A stretch of DNA of 45,577 nt, counting the filler, from Jimgerdemannia flammicorona (taxonomy: Eukaryota): NCBI GenBank assembly GCA_003990765.1. It is 2 parts of 2 records of this genome, joined end to end, with 100 filler letters (N's around TTAATTAATTAA, not from the genome) between each part and the next. Parts side by side here need not be neighbours in the genome. Positions count along the whole stretch, not along the records: positions 1 to 22,740 come from RBNJ01001210.1; 1 more part is not named here. One strand, 5' to 3'. Positions 4,110 to 22,840 of this stretch are shown here, in pieces. The translations under genes were made by a program, and so were the position numbers. The notes under the pieces are model-generated. The model was not told where the DNA came from. It was given only the letters and a program-made list of their open reading frames with translations, and made no database searches. Positions within the stretch are counted from its first letter, which is position 1; every line of letters begins with the position of its first letter.

Positions 4110-5166
4110 TTCCAAGAGAAGAAGAAATATTGAAGATCCTGATAACAAATCATGACCCAAATGCACACCAAGAAATTGGCACCACAATCGCAAGAATCAA
4201 GAAGCGATACTGGTGGCCCAAGATGAGAAAATAAATTTCAATGCACATTCAACAATATGATACCTGCCAAAGATACCGACAAAAGCCTACTGACAGAGTA
4301 CCATTAATACTGATTACAGCACCAGCTGGAGTCTTTCAAAGACTGGGAATAGACATTATTGGACCCCTACCAGTAACCAGCCAAGGAAGACACTATATCC
4401 TCACTATTGAAGACTACCTGACAAAATGGCCTGAAGCCTTTGCCATTGAGACTGCTGATGCCCAGACAATTATTGGGATCCTGTATGATGAAATTTTCAG
4501 CCACCATGGTGTGCCCAAGGAAATCATTACAGATCAAGGCCGAGAATTCATCAACCAAGCCATGAAGACCTTTGCGAGCAACTTCAAGATCAAGCTACGA
4601 CCAACAACAGCCTACCACCTACAGGCAAATAGACTTACTGAACGAATGAACCAGACCATCAAGCGAGGTCTCAGTAGAACCGGAGATCAACTAAACTGGG
4701 ATATCTATCTACCGGCAATTCTGTTCAGCATCCGTACCTCTAAGGCAACTGCTATCCAACAGACCCCCTTCTATTTGGTGTATGGCTGAGAAGCATATGA
4801 TCCTACTGAACCAGTCCAGCTAGATCTGTCAAAATGAGTCACAGAAGAGATCATTCGGTTACACGACATACACCACAAGCACAAGGATTTATTGCCAAGG
4901 CACAAGAATGACAAAAGAGGTACTACAACTGCAAAGCTGACCTCGAACCCCTACTCATTAGACAAAAGGTTCTGGTGTACTGTACCATCATAGAAGGAAA
5001 TTGGAGTATCAAGCTTGAACCAAAATGGGAAGGCCCCTATCTCATACACCAAGTATTCCCAAACCACACTTATCAACTCAAGACCTTGGATGGAGTTATA
5101 CTCAAGACTAAGATACACTGCAACTGCATAAGACTCTACTACTCAAGAGAAGCAAAACGCATTTAA
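4110..5166 (+). pseudogene. Integrase of element A (HHCC, DDE core, C-terminal SH3-like part; no chromodomain)
   Basis: RYWWPKMR..DTCQ, GIDIIGPLP, ITDQGREF, LTERMNQT, TPFYLVYG, KLEPKWEGPY. Confidence 0.93.
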
Positions 5167-5479
5167 ACAATCCTGTTCACTCTGTCTGTGTCATCTCTAT
5201 TGGAGATACAATGGATGTTTCACTCGGAACTCAAGAAAGCCAAGAACATTGGAACCAGACTCAAGCCCATCTATGTGACAGGCATTGTTACTAAGAAATT
5301 GCCTCAGATTACAAGAAATACTATTTCCAATGGGTTTGAACCCCCAGCCATGACTATGGGAGGCCTTGCCCTAGACAAGGATGGCCAGTCCTCACAAATG
5401 CACTGACATTCTGCTCATCCCTTGAGTTAAGACCACCCAACTCTGTGTAACCCTCACCGCCAAGGATGGCTCTAATTTT

Positions 5480-5491
5480 GCAAGAGGCAGA
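5480..5491 (+). promoter_or_regulatory. Degenerate polypurine tract of element A
   Basis: GCAAGAGGCAGA immediately before TGTG; preceded by the AGGA-loop hairpin also found before the PPT of B and C2. Confidence 0.7.
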
Positions 5492-5572
5492 TGTGATGTC
5501 TATAATCGACCGTGTCCAAATTCGGAGTATCCTGTGACCACAAGATCAGATGACATTATGGTGCGATAACTG

Positions 5573-6694
5573 GTGACCAGCCCAAACCGTCAAGTGATTT
5601 CACCAAAAGAAGACAAGATGATCCAAGCCAAAATGAAGACCACATTATTTAAGGAACCATACTCTGCCTCAGGGATCAGTATCAAAGAACCAAGTACTCA
5701 CCACACAATACCTCCCATTCGCCGATCCAACCAGACCTCCCACCACTCTACCCCTTTGCCTGGCCCAAAGACCCTGATCTTTGAAGCTATCAAGAAGGCC
5801 ATCTGGTGCCCAGATACTTCCAAACACTTGAACTTCTATATCGAGGACCTTGGACACTTCATCAACTACTGGTATACAATGACCCAACAGCTCAAAGACA
5901 CTACCGAACGAATGACCCTCTGGCATGACTACGAAATCGGACACCGCCTTCACAATGAGACTCAAGAAGACAACCAGGAAGACCTCATTACTGAATTGAT
6001 AACCACCAGCCAGCTGATCAAGAGAGCTCTCCATGTTCATCAGATATTCTGCTACATCCCCTAGGCCATAGCATACTTGCAAGGAGTAACAGCCGGCAGT
6101 CTTGCCCATCTCTCAACTGAAGATGCAGACTGGATAGAATCAGAAGTAGCCAACTCTATTGGTAGCAACTGGGTCACTGTAGGAAGCCAACAAACCAAAC
6201 CTACTTAGCCAGGTTTCCACACCACCCCACTCCGAGACAACCATCAAGGTCACCTAATGAGTCTTATGGAGATATTTGAAGGACTGCCCATTACCATAGA
6301 AGTACCCATTGGAGCTACCCCAACCACCCACCACCCTGTCAGCCACAATTTACATCTCATCATTTGGGAACCGAATCAAGAAGAAGCTCAAGAGGTCCCT
6401 GTCTTTGAAGAGGAAGCCCAAGAACTCCAAGACCCTGCCCCTGAAGAAACCCCCTCTGATACTGAAACTGACAAGTCTTCAGAAGAAGAAGAGGAGCAAC
6501 AGAGAGTCTACCAGTCCTCTGTCCGCATTCAAGCTGTTCAAGGGTTGGAGAATATTGTTGAAGATGACTGGCCACTTTTCTACCCCCTCATCTCTTGGCC
6601 AGCACTTCCCCCTTTTGAGGAGAGGTATGATGAAGAAGAAATCATAACCCAGCAAGATTTGCCCACCATGGATGAAGGGTACTATTCCCTCTAG
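5573..6694 (+). pseudogene. LTR-embedded accessory ORF (ORF-X), ~370 codons, conserved core plus acidic C-terminus
   Basis: ORFs 5573-6064 and 6257-6694 and the gap between them are one frame broken only by TAG at 6062 and 6206; core LWHDYEIGHRL...ALHVHQIF matches post-integrase ORFs in C1 and C2; true start codon uncertain. Confidence 0.75.
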
Positions 6695-6735: not shown

Positions 6736-7040
6736 TCAGCATTTTGTCAGCAAGTCTGAATCCAGCATTGCTACCCAGCACAACCATTTCCAGCATTGCT
6801 ATCCAGTGCCACCATTTTCAGCATTTTGTCAGCAAGTCCGAATTCAGCATTGCTACCCAGCACAACCATTTCCAGCATTGTTATCCAGTGCTACCATTTT
6901 CAGTGTTTTGTCAGCAAGTCCGAATCCAACGTTACTACCCAGCACAACCGTTTCTAGCATTGCTATCTAGTGCCACTGTTTTCAGCATTTTGTCAGCAAG
7001 TCCAAATCCAGCGTTGCTACCCAGCACAACCATTTCTGGC
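6736..7040 (+). repeat. 82-bp tandem repeat (~3.7 copies) in U3 of LTR A
   Basis: Units start at 6736, 6818, 6900, 6982 (TCAGCATTTTGTCAGCAAGTC...), each with two internal CCAGCATTGCTAYCCAG subrepeats. Confidence 0.95.
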
Positions 7041-7167
7041 AACAATCGTCATATCCATATCCATCCATGTCAGTAAGTCAGCCCTTCATATTGTGCAAGC
7101 CAATAGCATAGTGAAGTTCGCCACAACATAGTATACCTTAGCCCCCCCCCCATAGCTAGCAAATTTG

Positions 7168-7199
7168 TATAAATAACCCTATATCTTAGAGTGAATAAA
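7168..7199 (+). promoter_or_regulatory. LTR TATA box and polyadenylation signal
   Basis: TATAAA 7168-7173 and AATAAA 7194-7199 followed by CCTCAG, same layout as B LTR (TGTATAAATA...AATAAAGCCTCAG). Confidence 0.7.
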
Positions 7200-7202
7200 A
7201 CC

Positions 7203-7500
7203 TCAGTCAGACAGTTTTACAGAGAAAACACACTGCCTCCAAGAGACTGGAAAATTCTGAGAACAAAATAACAACCTAGAGCAACAGATCGCTCAGAAGT
7301 TTGAGTTAAGGAATTTCTCTTGCCACCTGAATTTCAAGTTTTGCCACCACGAAAAGGATTCAAGACCACAGACCACCCACAATTCAGTCAGACAGTTTTA
7401 CAGAGAAAACACACTGCCTCTAAGAGAACGGAATTCCAAGAACAAAATAACTAGAGCAATGGATCACTCGAGATTTGAGTTAAAGAATTTCTCTTACCAC
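7203..7500 (+). repeat. ~120 bp direct duplication inside LTR A (7203-7326 and 7384-7500)
   Basis: Both copies begin TCAGTCAGACAGTTTTACAGAGAAAACACACTGCCTC and end GAATTTCTCTTRCCAC. Confidence 0.9.
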
Positions 7501-8559
7501 AGAAAGAAAGAAAACATTACCCGACTGCTGACTGCTGCCATTCAAGACCACCATTCGAGATTCAAGACCCCAGCAATACAGCTAAAGAACCCAAGGAACC
7601 CAAGTTACCCAGCCAAAGGATACAAGACCGCTGCCAAAGATCTGAACGACTGCCAGAAACCTTTCAAGTTAACCAAGATGGATGAGTGAGCCATCAACCT
7701 CCATTTTCCCCAACCTACTGCACCATGGACTGCTTTAATTGACCACATAAAGAGCAAGACCATCAAGACCATCGCTGCCAAGTTATTTGCCACCCTTTTC
7801 CACTAAACAATTGAGCCATCGATGTTCTGAGCCAATGAACAATCGAACTCCCACTATCAATTATCATACGAATCGGATGAACCGATCACATGACCATCGA
7901 CCTGCAACCATCACAAATGCACTCAGTCATATACCGCGCACTCCACCAAGTGGCACATTGAGCCATGCCAGAAGCAACTAGGAATACAAACCCAATGCCA
8001 CAATATATATTATATATATTATTCTATATATATCCATACTTACTATAGTAATAGTAATTACTATTGAACTTAGATTTATATTTTTAACCTTATTGGTACT
8101 TCTTACCTTATCTATATAACCTGTAGAATACTTTCTTATCATCATTATTGCTACTATTTCCTTGATGTATCTCTTCATTAATGAGACTTATTATTATATA
8201 AATATAGTCTATAAGTTTTTTGCTTTTATATATAGCTATTATTATAACATTATATATCTCAGAGTAGTTCCTTATAAGGGTCAGAATCTTGTCTTCATTA
8301 CTGATATACTTATACTGACTCCTTGATTTTTTTAGTTGTGATATCTTAGTATAGAGTAGTATATAGTCTTAGAAAGGTATCTCTTACTAGCTGCTAACTA
8401 GGGCTCATAATCTTTTATTGTATCTTAGTTGAAAATATAGAGTAGAGAAAAAAGAGCAGTATTGTTTTTATTAAATATATATCTATTTATATATTGAGTA
8501 ATATAACTCAAAGATGACATAGTTATATAAAAGCTACATTATTGAGATATAATAATGAG

Positions 8560-9139: not shown

Positions 9140-9542
9140 TGTAACATTTTAGTGTAGTTTATTCCTTTTCTTTGTCTTTCTCCAATATTCTATGACCTTC
9201 TGGTACTTTCTGAATGCTTAGAAATCCTTTCTTGGTGCCAAGCATTAACTAGTACTTATTTAGTTAGTCCTGGAATGTCCTGGAAACTTGTAGAACTTTA
9301 TTTGTCATCATTTGTCATCTTTGCCGTGAACTTTCCTCTTGGTATTTTCCTTCGATTTCTCAGATCCTTCCAGATCCTTCTTTCAGATCTTGTATAAATA
9401 TCCCCTTTGTTCTCATAAATAAAGCCTCAGAATATTTTCTCCCAGAAATCCTTCGAGAACACTTGAATCCTTAGTATCTCTTTGAGCTACTTAGGACTAC
9501 CAGAATTAGTCACTTCCTCATTTAGAAACTAGAACTGTTACA
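9140..9542 (+). repeat. 5' LTR of element B
   Basis: Direct repeat of 14767-15169 (about 21 differences by hand count), TGTAACA/TGTTACA termini. Confidence 0.98.
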
Positions 9543-9544
9543 CT

Positions 9545-9556
9545 TGGTAGCAGTGG
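9545..9556 (+). promoter_or_regulatory. Primer-binding site, initiator tRNA-Met type
   Basis: TGGTAGCAGTGG 2 nt after the LTR; complementary to the ...GCUACCA end of eukaryotic tRNA-iMet. Confidence 0.8.
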
Positions 9557-14000: not shown

Positions 14001-14453
14001 CAAGATGTCACATACAACATTGGCAATATGGTTCTACTCAAAGCCAACAACATCAAGGCTCAATCTCAAGTCAACCGCCAGTCAGCCAAATTCCAGCCCA
14101 AGTACCTTGGACCCTTCGAGATCACTGAGCAAGTCTCTATCTGGTCTTACCATCTCAACTTGCCAACAACCATGCATATACACCCAGTATTCCATATGTC
14201 ACAACTCAAGGCCTGGAACCAGTCACCCCCATACCCTGGCTGAATTCCGACACCATCAGCACCAGTCATAGTTGAAGACCACATCAAGTATGAAGTCGAG
14301 AAAATCTTAGACAAACAAGTCCAATACCATCGCACAGAATACCTAGTCAAGTGGATGGGTTACCCTGAATATGACGCCACCTGGGAACCTGCCGCCAACC
14401 TCAAGAACTCCCAAGACCTCATCCAAGAGTTCGAGCAAAAAGGAACTCATTGA
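11094..14453 (+). pseudogene. pol of element B: PR-RT-RNaseH-IN-chromodomain
   Basis: [61 protein letters not shown]; several stops. Confidence 0.97.
14289..14440 (+). other. Integrase C-terminal chromodomain
   Basis: YEVEKILDKQVQYHRTEYLVKWMGYPEYDATWEPAANLKN, aromatic cage Y/W/Y present. Confidence 0.95.
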
Positions 14454-14753
14454 CTGCCCGTGAGGTTCTCCCCTTGGATAGTAGATGACCTACTGTGCTG
14501 ATCAGGCACATTATGCATTGGGGCTCTCTAAGGGATACAGCATCAGAAGTAAGAGATACAGGAGAACCCTATAAATCCTGCAACCAATGAGGTTTGAACC
14601 AGTTCTCATCTGATCAAGATGATACTTTGGCCCTCACCTTATACAAGGATGGCCAATCCTTGCCAATGAGTCGGTATAGTTAATTTGAAGTTTCTTTTAG
14701 TCTTATTGTTTATCATGTGTATCTTTGAGAATTCAACGAGGACGTTGATTCTT

Positions 14754-14766
14754 AAGGAGGGGGAGA
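14754..14766 (+). promoter_or_regulatory. Polypurine tract of element B
   Basis: AAGGAGGGGGAGA abutting the 3' LTR. Confidence 0.95.
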
Positions 14767-15169
14767 TGTAACATTTTAGCGTAGTTTATTCCTTTTCTTT
14801 GTCTTTCTCCAATATTCTATAACCTTCTGGTACTTTCCGAATGCTTAGAAATCCTTTCTTAGCACCGAGCATTAACTAGTACTTATTTAGTTAGTCACTG
14901 AATGTCCTGGAAACTTGTAGAACTTTATTTGTCATCATTTGTCATCTTTGCCAAGAACTTTCTTCTTGGCATTTTCCTTTGATTTCTCAGATCCTTCCGG
15001 ATCCTTCTTTCAGATCTTGTATAAATATCCCCTTTGTTCTCATGAATAAAGCCTCAGAATATTTTCTCCCAGAAATCCTTTGAGAACACTTGAATCCTTA
15101 GTATCTCTTCGAGCTACTTAGGACTACCAGAATTAGCCGCTTCCTCATTTAGAAACTAGAACTGTTACA
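14767..15169 (+). repeat. 3' LTR of element B
   Basis: Direct repeat of 9140-9542. Confidence 0.98.
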
Positions 15170-18100
15170 TGTTTCTTAAAGAATTCATACTTCTTGAGCT
15201 TGGCATAAAGCTTATGTTTTTGCAGGATCTCCAGGACTATTTGAATATATTTGAGGTGTTCTTCTTTAGTTGTACTAAAGATCAGGATGTTATCAAGATA
15301 TATCAACAGGAAAATAAATAGTTGGTCCTTGAATGTCTTATTCATCAGAGTCTGAAATGTGGTGAGTACATTGGTGAGACTAAATGTGAAGACCAGGAAT
15401 TCATAGAGTCCAAAGGGGGTCATAAACATAGTCTTGGGAATGTCTTCTGACTTAATTCAAATCTGGTGATATTCTGACATAAGGTCTAACTTGGTGAAGT
15501 ACTTGGTATTCTTGAGAGCATCAAAGATTTGATCAATCAAGAGTAATAGATAGCAGTTCTTGACAGTGAGTTTGTTGAGTGCATGATAGTCTATGTATAT
15601 TTGCAGGGTACCATTCTTCTTCTTGACAAATAGAACTGGTGAGCTATAAGGAGATTTGCTTGGCTGGATGGCTCCTTATGTAAGTTGTTCTTCTAGTTCC
15701 TTCTTGACTGCTTCAACTTCAAGTAGTGATATGTAGTACATATATTTCTTGGGTAGTATAGCTCCTGGGGTCAGTTTGATTTCATAATCAACTTCTTGTA
15801 TAGGTGGTAGACCAGATAGCTTGTCTAGAAAGACATCCTTGAATTCTTCTAGTAGTAGCTTGATGTTTTCATTAACTGATAGTCTCTTGTCTTGTTTCTT
15901 GAGGTGAATTATTATAATAAAGACATGTATTGCCTTCTTGAGTGCTTTCTTATATTATATAGCTGATAGTGTTGCAATCTGGGTCTTACTCATAGTCTTG
16001 TCTGTCTTGATCATAATGTTGGCTCCATCTTGAAGTAGAGTAACTTCATTCTTATACTAATCAATATCTGGATTGTGTTTCATGAGCCAGGGTTTTCCTA
16101 AGATCAGGTTATGATCTTCTAGTAGTACAATCTCAAAGTCTACTTATTCCTAATATTTCTGGATCTTGATGGGTAGTTCGGTAACAATTGACTCAATGGA
16201 GTATAGAGTACCATCTGCAGTGACTATACTATTATTCTTGGGTGCAGGCTTGGTGAGGATCTTGAGGCTTTCGATGAGATTCTGATTGATGAAGTTCCCT
16301 GCAGCTCCACTATCTATGAGTACTTGAACTTCTTTTCCTTTGATTAGGCCTTTGAAAATGAGCATAGCTTGAGCTCAATTTTCACTAAGACTTGCTGCTT
16401 GATCAGTGCTGCCAAAACTCTTTTGATCTCATTTGGTTTCAGGGAGTTCTTGGACTTCTATAATCTTAAGTTGACTGGCTTTTTCCAGGATAATTTGTGC
16501 GACTCAGTCTCCTTCTTTAACTGTGTAGTCTTGATCCTTCTAGTTGACAAGCAAGACTTGAACTTGTCCTCAAAAGTCTGGATCAATAATACTAGTACCT
16601 ATATCTAAATGATGTTTGATACTGAGTTCTGATTATGGTGCAATTCTAGCATAATGTCCTTTAGGGCATTGAACTGCAATTCCAGTAGACACTAGAGTAC
16701 AACCCTTGGCTGGAATAGTGACTTATTTGACTGAGTGTAGGTCAAGACTAATGGCTCCTTCTGTTTGATATTGAGAGACCTGGGCCTTCAGATGAAGTTT
16801 CTTGATCTTGAACTCAAGTTGACTGATAGTGGAATTGACAAATATATCCTTGGACAACATGGTGACTGGTCTTGAGAGTTCGCTAGTCTTCCTAGGATAT
16901 TTGGTTGCAATGTATCCTGTTTGGTGATAGAAAAAACAGGCTGTGGATTTCTTCAGGTGGTCCTTTTCTTCAGGGGTGAGCTTGGTGTTCTTTTTGTTCA
17001 TAGTGTCTAAGTCCATTAGTGCCAGGCCAACTGTCCTTGGTTGGTTTCTGTAGCAGTTCTCAAAGTGGTTCTTCTTGTGGCATTCTGGCTCAAAGCAGTT
17101 ATCAAAGGTGATGATATTAAATTTATCAGTGATTCTCATAGCTTTATCAAGAGTTTTGGGCTCTTCTAGCTCAACCTTGACTTGTGTATTTCCCTTCAGA
17201 CCTTGGATATAGCAGTCTATCTTTTCATTCTCAGATACTGCTGGTAGCTTGAGTAGGATTGATAAGAATTGTATATTATAGCCTTGAACAGACTTAAGTT
17301 GCTTGATGTTTACTAGCTTGTCCCTGGCTAGCTTAGTGGCATTAGCAGACTTGAACTGCTTGTGAAGGGCTCTCTTGAAAGCTTCCCAATCTCTGATTCA
17401 TATATATGAGTATACAGATATAACCATAATATGATTGCACTACCAGATAGCTATATTTCCTTGGAGGAGTGTGGTGGCAAATTAGACTTATATGTCATCT
17501 TCCATTCTTATAAGTTTGAAGTATTGGTCCAACTAGAAGATCCATACATCTGTAGATAGTTCTCCTCAATGGCCATCAAAGATATCTGGCTTAAGTGGCT
17601 TGAAACTGACTAGTGCTATGGCAGGATGTGATGTTTCTATAGTTTGTATTTTCTGGTGTTCTACTTGTACTTGCAGTTCTTGAATTTGGTGGGCCATAGT
17701 ATTGATCATATCTTCTATGTTGAGCTGTAATCCTTCTACTTCTTCTATAGCAGAGGGGTCTGACTGATAGACTGACTCTTCATGGCTCATTTCAGGTTCA
17801 TGTGACTAGTTGTGACTGGTTTCTGAATTCATGTCAGTTTCTTAATAAGGCAAGGTATAATGACACTACTGCTACCAAGTGTAACAGTTCTAGTTTCTTT
17901 AAGAGAAAGTGGCTAAATCTGGAAGTTCTAGTTGATCTAAAGTAGTTTGAAGAGATACTTAAAGGTTCAAGTATTCTTGAAGAATTTCTGAGAGAAAATA
18001 TTCTGAGCTTTATTTAGGTAGAGAACAAGGATATTTATACATAATCTGAAAGAAAGATCTGGAAGGATCTTGGAAAGAAAGAGAAATGCCAAGAAATAGG

Positions 18101-22740: not shown

Positions 22741-22840
22741 NNNNNNNNNNNNNNNNNNNNNNNNNNNNNNNNNNNNNNNNNNNNTTAATTAATTAANNNN
22801 NNNNNNNNNNNNNNNNNNNNNNNNNNNNNNNNNNNNNNNN
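22741..22840. other. Artificial assembly gap/linker (N44-TTAATTAATTAA-N44)
   Basis: Exactly 100 nt, symmetric, central 12-mer gives stops in all six frames. Confidence 0.97.

Follow-up and report, generated by a model that had tools for sequence, protein, structure and literature searches.

Two Ty3/gypsy elements of different architecture

We analysed a 45,577-nucleotide (45.6-kb) stretch of DNA from Jimgerdemannia flammicorona, which is referred to in its entirety as the window. It is a eukaryotic repeat landscape that holds at least six decayed Ty3/gypsy elements, every one of them with a dUTPase. The stretch was present in 10 sequencing runs, in each at a small share (≤0.20), and 8 of these 10 runs are soil metagenomes, the other two being labelled organism A; none of the runs listed is from RNA. 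Within positions 1-34200 two dUTPase layouts were found: PR-dUTPase-RT in elements A and E (F looks A-like) and dUTPase-PR-RT in elements B, C and D. A passage in PMC2864245 describes the dUTPase position as variable among fungal gypsy elements. Two runs of 44 N (22741-22784 and 22797-22840) lie where the integrase of D and the post-pol end of E are missing.

The main parts of elements A and B are as follows.

1 to at least 7300, + strand: element A, its 5' end cut by the window
4235-4786, + strand: integrase core of A (Pfam match)
4912-5166, + strand: last integrase segment of A (SH3-like C-terminus), from the ORF list, with a TAA stop at 5164-5166
9140-9542, + strand: 5' LTR of B, paired with the 3' LTR at 14767-15169
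9545-9556, + strand: primer binding site (PBS) of B
14244-14453, + strand: chromodomain at the integrase end of B (Pfam Chromo, E 1.6e-19), with a TGA stop at 14451-14453
14754-14765, + strand: polypurine tract (PPT) of B, directly followed by the 3' LTR (14767-15169)

Element A has the order PR-dUTPase-RT-RH-IN and carries no chromodomain. Element B is complete: gag is followed by dUTPase-PR-RT-RH-IN-chromodomain in a single frame, which is interrupted by five in-frame stops and zero frameshifts, and its LTRs are about 94% alike over the first 300 nt compared. The two had originally been described as unrelated lineages. Their architectures do differ; both are, however, Ty3/gypsy elements that carry a dUTPase, and their identity is 41% in RT and 28% in the integrase core. 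Judged by sequence, A and B are different lineages within one superfamily. The nearest named relatives of the B pol are elements of plants and streptophyte algae (about 48%), and one metagenome protein is 94% identical to it; no relative was found in viral contigs.

Element C (15157-17877, - strand) is B-like, with 68% pol identity and a PBS that equals that of B save for one base. It ends at the 3' LTR of B, which suggests that B inserted into C. A target-site duplication of B was not seen, the 5 nt flanking it on each side not being alike. An 11-bp hairpin (14727-14753) adjoins the PPT of B and recalls the Sirevirus inverted repeat at the PPT/LTR junction.

An extra gene downstream of pol in element A

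Downstream of pol, element A continues with a spacer and an additional open reading frame.

5167-5707, + strand: non-coding pol-ORF3 spacer of A, about 540 nt, with the motif described below
5708-6691, possibly to 6967, + strand: ORF3 of A, an orphan post-pol ORF

Between 5381 and 6967 frame 2 of A contains five stops, against 22 and 27 in the other frames. Translated with X at the stops, this frame matched one metagenome protein cluster, whose six members are 74-82% identical to it and open for up to 331 residues. Relatives are located on ENA contigs of 19.4 kb and 36.4 kb. In the aligned part, the window stops at ORF3 codons 228 and 276 are W and L in these relatives. The scarcity of stops in frame 2 together with the open relatives shows that ORF3 is a genuine extra gene of A. 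Three of the relatives have a complete N-terminus, and all three begin with a Met aligned to window codon 110, i.e. at about nt 5708, such that 540 nt of spacer separate pol from ORF3 and contain the A motif. The frame-2 translation of 5381-5725 gave no protein homologue. The N-terminus of ORF3 is rich in Arg and Ser and its C-terminal half is acidic. Searches in pieces gave no Pfam domain, the protein atlas no usable match, and an AlphaFold model (mean pLDDT 40.3) no confident fold.

Further features were noted around this gene. An intact A-type element on a contaminant contig of a prokaryote assembly (L056, 1777-5859) has a 1208-codon pol whose TAG stop is followed by an in-frame acidic ORF of 151 codons; the box pair described below is absent from it. 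Downstream of ORF3 in A lies an 82-nt tandem repeat of at least three units (6736-7041), followed by a duplication of about 180 nt (7205-7430). Related contigs of all four runs used below break at 7199, and one contig skips 7253-7440.

A pair of boxes shared by A and B

According to the original prediction, A and B share an RNA motif 3' of their integrase genes. Both motif strings were found in the sequence at the predicted places. The window contains the 13-mer ACAAGGATGGCCA exactly twice, at 5375-5387 in A and at 14643-14655 in B, and in both elements the 10-mer GGTTTGAACC lies 5' of it, so that A and B have one 13-mer and one 10-mer in common in the same order. The CATTGG further upstream is likewise present in both (5247-5252 in A, 14516-14521 in B). 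The predicted placement between integrase stop and PPT holds for B, where 98 nt separate the end of the motif from the LTR start at 14767, but not for A, where it sits in the pol-ORF3 spacer. The layout of the two copies is as follows.

5270-5400, + strand: stretch of A alignable to B (blastn-short reciprocal best match)
5327-5342, + strand: box 1 of A (CCAATG-GGTTTGAACC)
5343-5362, + strand: variable spacer of A, unalignable to the B spacer, with only a weak 4-bp hairpin
5363-5400, + strand: box 2 of A, 29/38 identical to B ungapped, including the 13-mer at 5375-5387
5378-5392, + strand: short hairpin in box 2 of A, 5 bp with loop GGCCA (MFE fold and pair counts)
14527-14668, + strand: stretch of B alignable to A (blastn-short reciprocal best match)
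14584-14600, + strand: box 1 of B (CCAATGAGGTTTGAACC)
14606-14622, + strand: B-specific 6-bp hairpin in the variable spacer
14631-14668, + strand: box 2 of B, with a 7-bp hairpin at 14644-14662 and loop GGCCA

The best local alignment between the post-pol regions of A and B covered 25/32 identical positions with a score of 34. Among 1000 dinucleotide shuffles of these regions (mean 18.7, maximum 31) none reached this score. Across the full elements the motif was the second-best nucleotide match between A and B, surpassed only by the catalytic region around the RT active site. Within the window, 5270-5400 and 14527-14668 were reciprocal best non-self matches (62% over 143 columns, E 3e-4). When gaps were made very cheap the evidence was softer, as the motif score was reached by 11 of 2000 shuffles and by 2 of the 152 real windows. 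The homology of the motif between A and B is real and goes beyond chance. A 13-nt sequence formed by the end of the A motif and the next 5 nt, TCACAAATGCACT, recurs at 7909-7921, 2.5 kb downstream; this exact match (E 5.9) is probably due to chance.

The similarity is concentrated in the two boxes. Identity amounts to 16/17 in box 1, which includes a 1-nt indel, and to 29/38 in box 2, i.e. 45/55 in both boxes against 8/30 in the spacer (Fisher p 1e-6, with boundaries chosen after seeing the data). Six of the nine differences in box 2 are transitions. From box 1 to box 2 the distance is 42 nt in A, compared with 52 nt in B. The conservation of the box pair thus sits in its primary sequence.

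Box 1 is a 10-nt palindrome around TTCGAA. In box 2, a GGCC/UGGCCA palindrome occupies the 5-nt loop of the hairpin in the MFE folds of both elements, a self-complementary sequence in a hairpin loop being characteristic of dimerisation sites. The motif is located 3' of pol, outside the 5' leader and gag where known sites of this kind lie.

Related copies retain the segment as a module

Contigs of four sequencing runs (X1, X2, X3 and X7) were placed on the window at 80% likeness and covered both elements. Among the 40 listed of 1280 differences from the window, five fall within 5329-5363. At 5337 T is replaced by C at depths of 64.2 out of 95.3 in X1, 10.9 out of 10.9 in X2, 10.6 out of 16.1 in X3 and 8.39 out of 16.4 in X7. 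At 5363 every covering contig of all four runs has C instead of G. The change A>G at 5329 had a depth of 20.2 out of 67.6 in X1 and a higher share in the other runs, and A>G at 5350 and T>C at 5351 were minor in X1 and major in X2 and X3.

Many of the related copies therefore have CG at 5337-5338 and some at 5329-5330, which indicates that the window copy has lost CpGs. The predicted reversion of CpG decay to GGTTCGAACC is thereby seen in existing copies, via the change at 5337, and the C at this position turns box 1 into a perfect 12-nt palindrome. For the second proposed reversion, to CGAGGAC...GTCCTCG, the 40 listed of 1280 differences gave no support. In the B motif none of these 40 listed differences (of 1280) was located, an observation that carries no weight.

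Coverage by X1 contigs was higher in box 2 than in the flank (20 contigs at 5363 vs 7 at 5282). Contigs of X2 and X3 match A up to 5401-5403 and continue with unlike sequence. As the similarity between A and B ends exactly there, the segment behaves as a module.

Searches for further copies

A covariance model was built from A and B and run on the window with filters off. It detected no third copy in the window, the next best match reaching 10 bits (E 1), and the search included E and F, both A-type, whose post-pol regions lack the motif. As a wider sample we used 79 gypsy loci of other hosts, which are contaminants of prokaryote assemblies with 33-60% identity to the B pol (RT); 27 of the 79 extend at least 300 nt beyond the last integrase match. 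Neither a fuzzy pattern nor the covariance model found a copy in these loci. A lineage-wide presence of the Sirevirus type was not seen, with 0/79 gypsy loci and none of E and F carrying the box pair.

Several candidates were rejected. One weak model match (L074/L075, 14.2 bits, E 0.47) lacks both boxes and was ascribed to chance. A pattern scan of viral contigs gave two matches, both in phage contigs without flanking likeness. In metagenome contigs, scanned with a pattern whose gap, N{12,42}, admits A-type spacing only and leaves out the 43-nt spacing of B, 17 loci matched; none has gypsy ORFs by tblastn and all were considered chance hits. The box pair matches no Rfam family, and a limited literature search, not made by the motif itself, found no description of it; conserved non-coding boxes in LTR retrotransposons as such are already known.

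A proposed cis element recognised by its sequence

The protein divergence between A and B excludes that the motif survived as neutral DNA by descent, such that its presence in both families requires selection or a later transfer from one to the other. Box/spacer contrast and modular behaviour of the segment favour a functional element that is read by its sequence. Our tentative best explanation is a sequence-recognised cis element, perhaps serving dimerisation or packaging of the genomic RNA, that came to be shared through recombination between families. This role is suggested by the two palindromes, one of them at a hairpin apex, by the likeness to the Ty3 dimerisation site and by a precedent among pararetroviruses (see below).

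Such an element would be a bipartite cis signal of genomic RNA or cDNA, placed immediately after pol in two Ty3/gypsy families of the same host that both carry a dUTPase. Box 1 would provide a palindrome of 10-12 nt around TTCGAA and box 2 a pyrimidine-rich run followed by a short hairpin with the GGCC palindrome (UGGCCA) at its apex, the 20-30 nt between the boxes being free to vary. A partner RNA or a protein would recognise the boxes by their primary sequence rather than by an autonomous fold. The likeliest role of the element would be in dimerisation and packaging, where two genomic RNAs would pair or Gag/NC would recognise it. The occurrence of the motif in two families whose proteins are 30-40% identical would be due to an exchange of the segment by template switching of co-packaged RNAs, which a common dimerisation/packaging signal would itself favour.

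In support of this explanation, the homology is confined to the post-pol region, boxes and spacer differ strongly in identity, both boxes contain palindromes, and the change at 5337 restores a CpG as well as the palindrome of box 1; the module edge at 5401-5403 and the excess of contigs over box 2 point in the same direction. Against it stands that the predicted gain from homodimer formation did not exceed that of shuffled sequences, the fraction of shuffles at least as good being 0.195 for B, and for A 0.120 as it stands and 0.095 once the read variants are introduced. The A copy has no stable fold, the motif is absent from E, F and the 79 gypsy loci (27 with at least 300 nt after the integrase), and the predominance of transitions in box 2 (6/9) is as in neutral decay. 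All dimerisation/packaging sites of retroelements known to us are located at the 5' end (5' UTR or gag) and not after pol. We also compared the motif with the leaders: its complementarity to the B 5' leader was not above controls (0.31 and 0.26), and its likeness to the leader and gag start of B or C gave scores of 17-21, equal to the shuffle mean. With only two independent sequences, selection on the box pair is not measurable.

Alternative explanations

The main rival, which we consider rather unlikely but serious, is that the segment is a neutral relic: a copy left by recombination, or an inheritance from an ancestor with a post-pol ORF, that is now decaying. The box pattern would then be an accident of where mutations and one replacement happened to fall. 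The small number of sequences (two), the transitions in box 2, the lack of structural or thermodynamic support in A, the absence of the motif from E, F and 79 other loci, and the shuffles that equal the whole-segment score under permissive gaps (11/2000) are all consistent with a relic. Against a relic stand the identities of 45/55 in the boxes vs 8/30 in the spacer and the related A copies that retain the segment while the flanks are replaced at 5401-5403. The proteins have moreover diverged too far for descent, such that a later transfer would be needed anyway.

Less of our confidence goes to the proposal that the box pair is a recognition signal linking the two families, either as a common dimerisation/packaging signal through which they would co-package and recombine or as a response element of the A ORF3 protein; taken together, these options appear improbable. 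With the ORF3 option, B would keep the element in order to borrow the ORF3 protein in trans, in a Rev/RRE-like manner. In either option, region-specific recombination would keep the signal alike in both families.

Similarly improbable is an expression module for the post-pol gene, in which a subgenomic RNA would be spliced at a 3' site made up of a pyrimidine run and AG, with the ATG of the 13-mer as its start codon. In A this module would act for ORF3, and B would retain a remnant of it. A genuine ORF3 does follow in A, and the ATG at 5381-5383, within the hairpin of box 2, is in its frame, which has 2 stops in 5381-5707 compared with 6 and 7 in the others. The ATG is flanked in both elements by a purine at -3 and G at +4 and follows a pyrimidine-rich run ending in AG, and PMC2829016 places conserved boxes of Sireviruses just upstream of the env gene. 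The relatives of ORF3 argue otherwise, as all three with a complete N-terminus start at about nt 5708 (codon 110), and a TAA at 5567 separates the ATG from ORF3. The translation of 5381-5725 is without homologue, B has no downstream gene and its ATG (14649-14651) opens 6 codons only, and none of the five changes after the ATG is synonymous in the ATG frame.

It is very doubtful that the motif is an accessory site for the primer tRNA, as in the bipartite PBS of Ty3, where box 1 would pair with the T arm and the sharing would reflect use of the same host tRNA. Box 1 is self-complementary and has what we take to be a likeness to the T arm or B box of tRNA; B and the B-like C use the same PBS with one base different. 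A passage in PMC5371799 describes how the T and D arms of the initiator tRNA pair with a second PBS segment at the 3' end of the Ty3 RNA. The Ty3 site is, however, located in U3 of the 3' LTR, a location not shared by either copy here: in B the motif precedes the PPT, and in A it is separated from the 3' end by about 1.8 kb or more. ARAGORN predicted 0 tRNA genes in the window, Rfam gave no tRNA match at E≤10 around either copy, and significant complementarity of the motif to the B 5' leader was not found. Pairing of the GATGG of both boxes with the T stem of the primer tRNA was dropped, since a 14-nt reading of the PBS in B and C points to another T-stem end.

We regard an autonomously folding conserved RNA, i.e. 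a ribozyme, a riboswitch-like element or a tRNA-like structure, as very unlikely. The original prediction of a cis-acting structured RNA, conserved or swapped between lineages, is borne out as far as the motif is real, non-coding and concentrated in two boxes; its structured or ribozyme nature found no support. The 94 nt of B do fold into a three-helix arrangement better than shuffled sequences (z -2.34 and -2.77), and when A is placed on this structure 86% of the cells are paired, so that much of helix 1 and helix 3 is possible in A as well. The 82 nt of A, in contrast, folded no better than shuffles (z +0.94, or +1.08 with the five read-supported differences). On the B structure, A shows 2 one-sided changes and 6 broken cells, and 0 of 25 pairs are changed on both sides, a count taken from only two sequences. 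The middle hairpin was said to keep its pairing despite different sequence; A has only 4 bp there, with no compensatory change. The two MFE folds have only the short box 2 hairpin (5-7 bp, loop GGCCA) in common. A comparison with Rfam gave 0 matches in the window at gathering thresholds and at E≤10 only unrelated ones of 12-16 bits (E>2), and the covariance model detected no further copy.

Protein-coding similarity or chance is hardly credible as the source of the match, chance being excluded by the shuffle test (0/1000) and the reciprocal best match (E 3e-4). In A a 79-codon open frame (frame 1, 5167-5403) in phase with the integrase runs through the motif, each frame of box 2 yields a common peptide (QGWPxLxN, KDGQS or MAxP), and two of the four changes are silent when read in the QGWP frame. 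A shared reading frame, which the original prediction had itself named as an alternative, fails nevertheless: due to the 10-nt difference in spacing and the 1-nt indel in box 1, no one frame covers both boxes in A and B. In B there are stops in or beside the motif in every frame, yet zero frameshifts across 3.4 kb of pol. The only match of the 79-aa peptide of A among 1.84 billion representative proteins was an unrelated repeat protein. Neither one open frame in both copies nor homologous proteins were found for the box pair, which is non-coding.

Significance and comparison with known systems

If functional, the sequence-recognised cis element favoured here would be a rare example of two deeply diverged families of LTR retrotransposons in one genome having a cis signal in common. 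Such sharing would point to co-packaging, recombination or trans-complementation across families, and draw attention to the orphan post-pol gene ORF3. To our knowledge, such cross-family processes are well documented for retroviruses and pararetroviruses and hardly at all for Ty3/gypsy elements. Even as a neutral relic, the segment would document recombination between very different gypsy lineages.

The closest parallel for the palindromes is Ty3 itself. According to PMC11381356, Ty3 RNAs dimerise through a site made up of a GC-rich 6-nt palindrome that caps a short hairpin, and packaging needs both UTRs plus POL. Like this site (DS/PAL6) and retroviral sites, box 2 presents a short GC-rich palindrome at a hairpin apex in a Ty3/gypsy genomic RNA, and, as with DS/PAL6, a second, longer palindrome is close by. 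Unlike these sites, the candidate here lies after pol, and its predicted dimer gain is not above shuffles. With the 3' PBS of Ty3, as far as the passage cited above describes it, the motif would share the nature of a 3'-side cis element of Ty3/gypsy RNA with a putatively T-arm-related box; the Ty3 site is inside U3, in contrast to the box pair before the PPT (B) or before ORF3 (A).

Sireviruses carry highly conserved non-coding boxes, some of them just upstream of env, according to Bousios et al. 2010 (PMC2829016). On this description they resemble the present case in that symmetric CpG-bearing boxes occur in non-coding parts of very diverged LTR retrotransposons and also lie just upstream of an extra gene. 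They differ in belonging to Ty1/copia elements and in being highly repeated CGG-CCG boxes of genus-wide occurrence, whereas here each element has a single copy of the box pair, and the families are two Ty3/gypsy families of the same host.

For the sharing between families, a precedent is found in grasses, where different pararetrovirus species in one host share non-coding regulatory sequences via region-specific recombination, as reported by Chen et al. 2017 (PMC5491270). The pararetroviruses described there come with non-autonomous partners, unlike A and B, which both carry gag-pol and for which the recombination route is our proposal. Both cases have in common an intergenic non-coding segment that is present in different reverse-transcribing species of one host.
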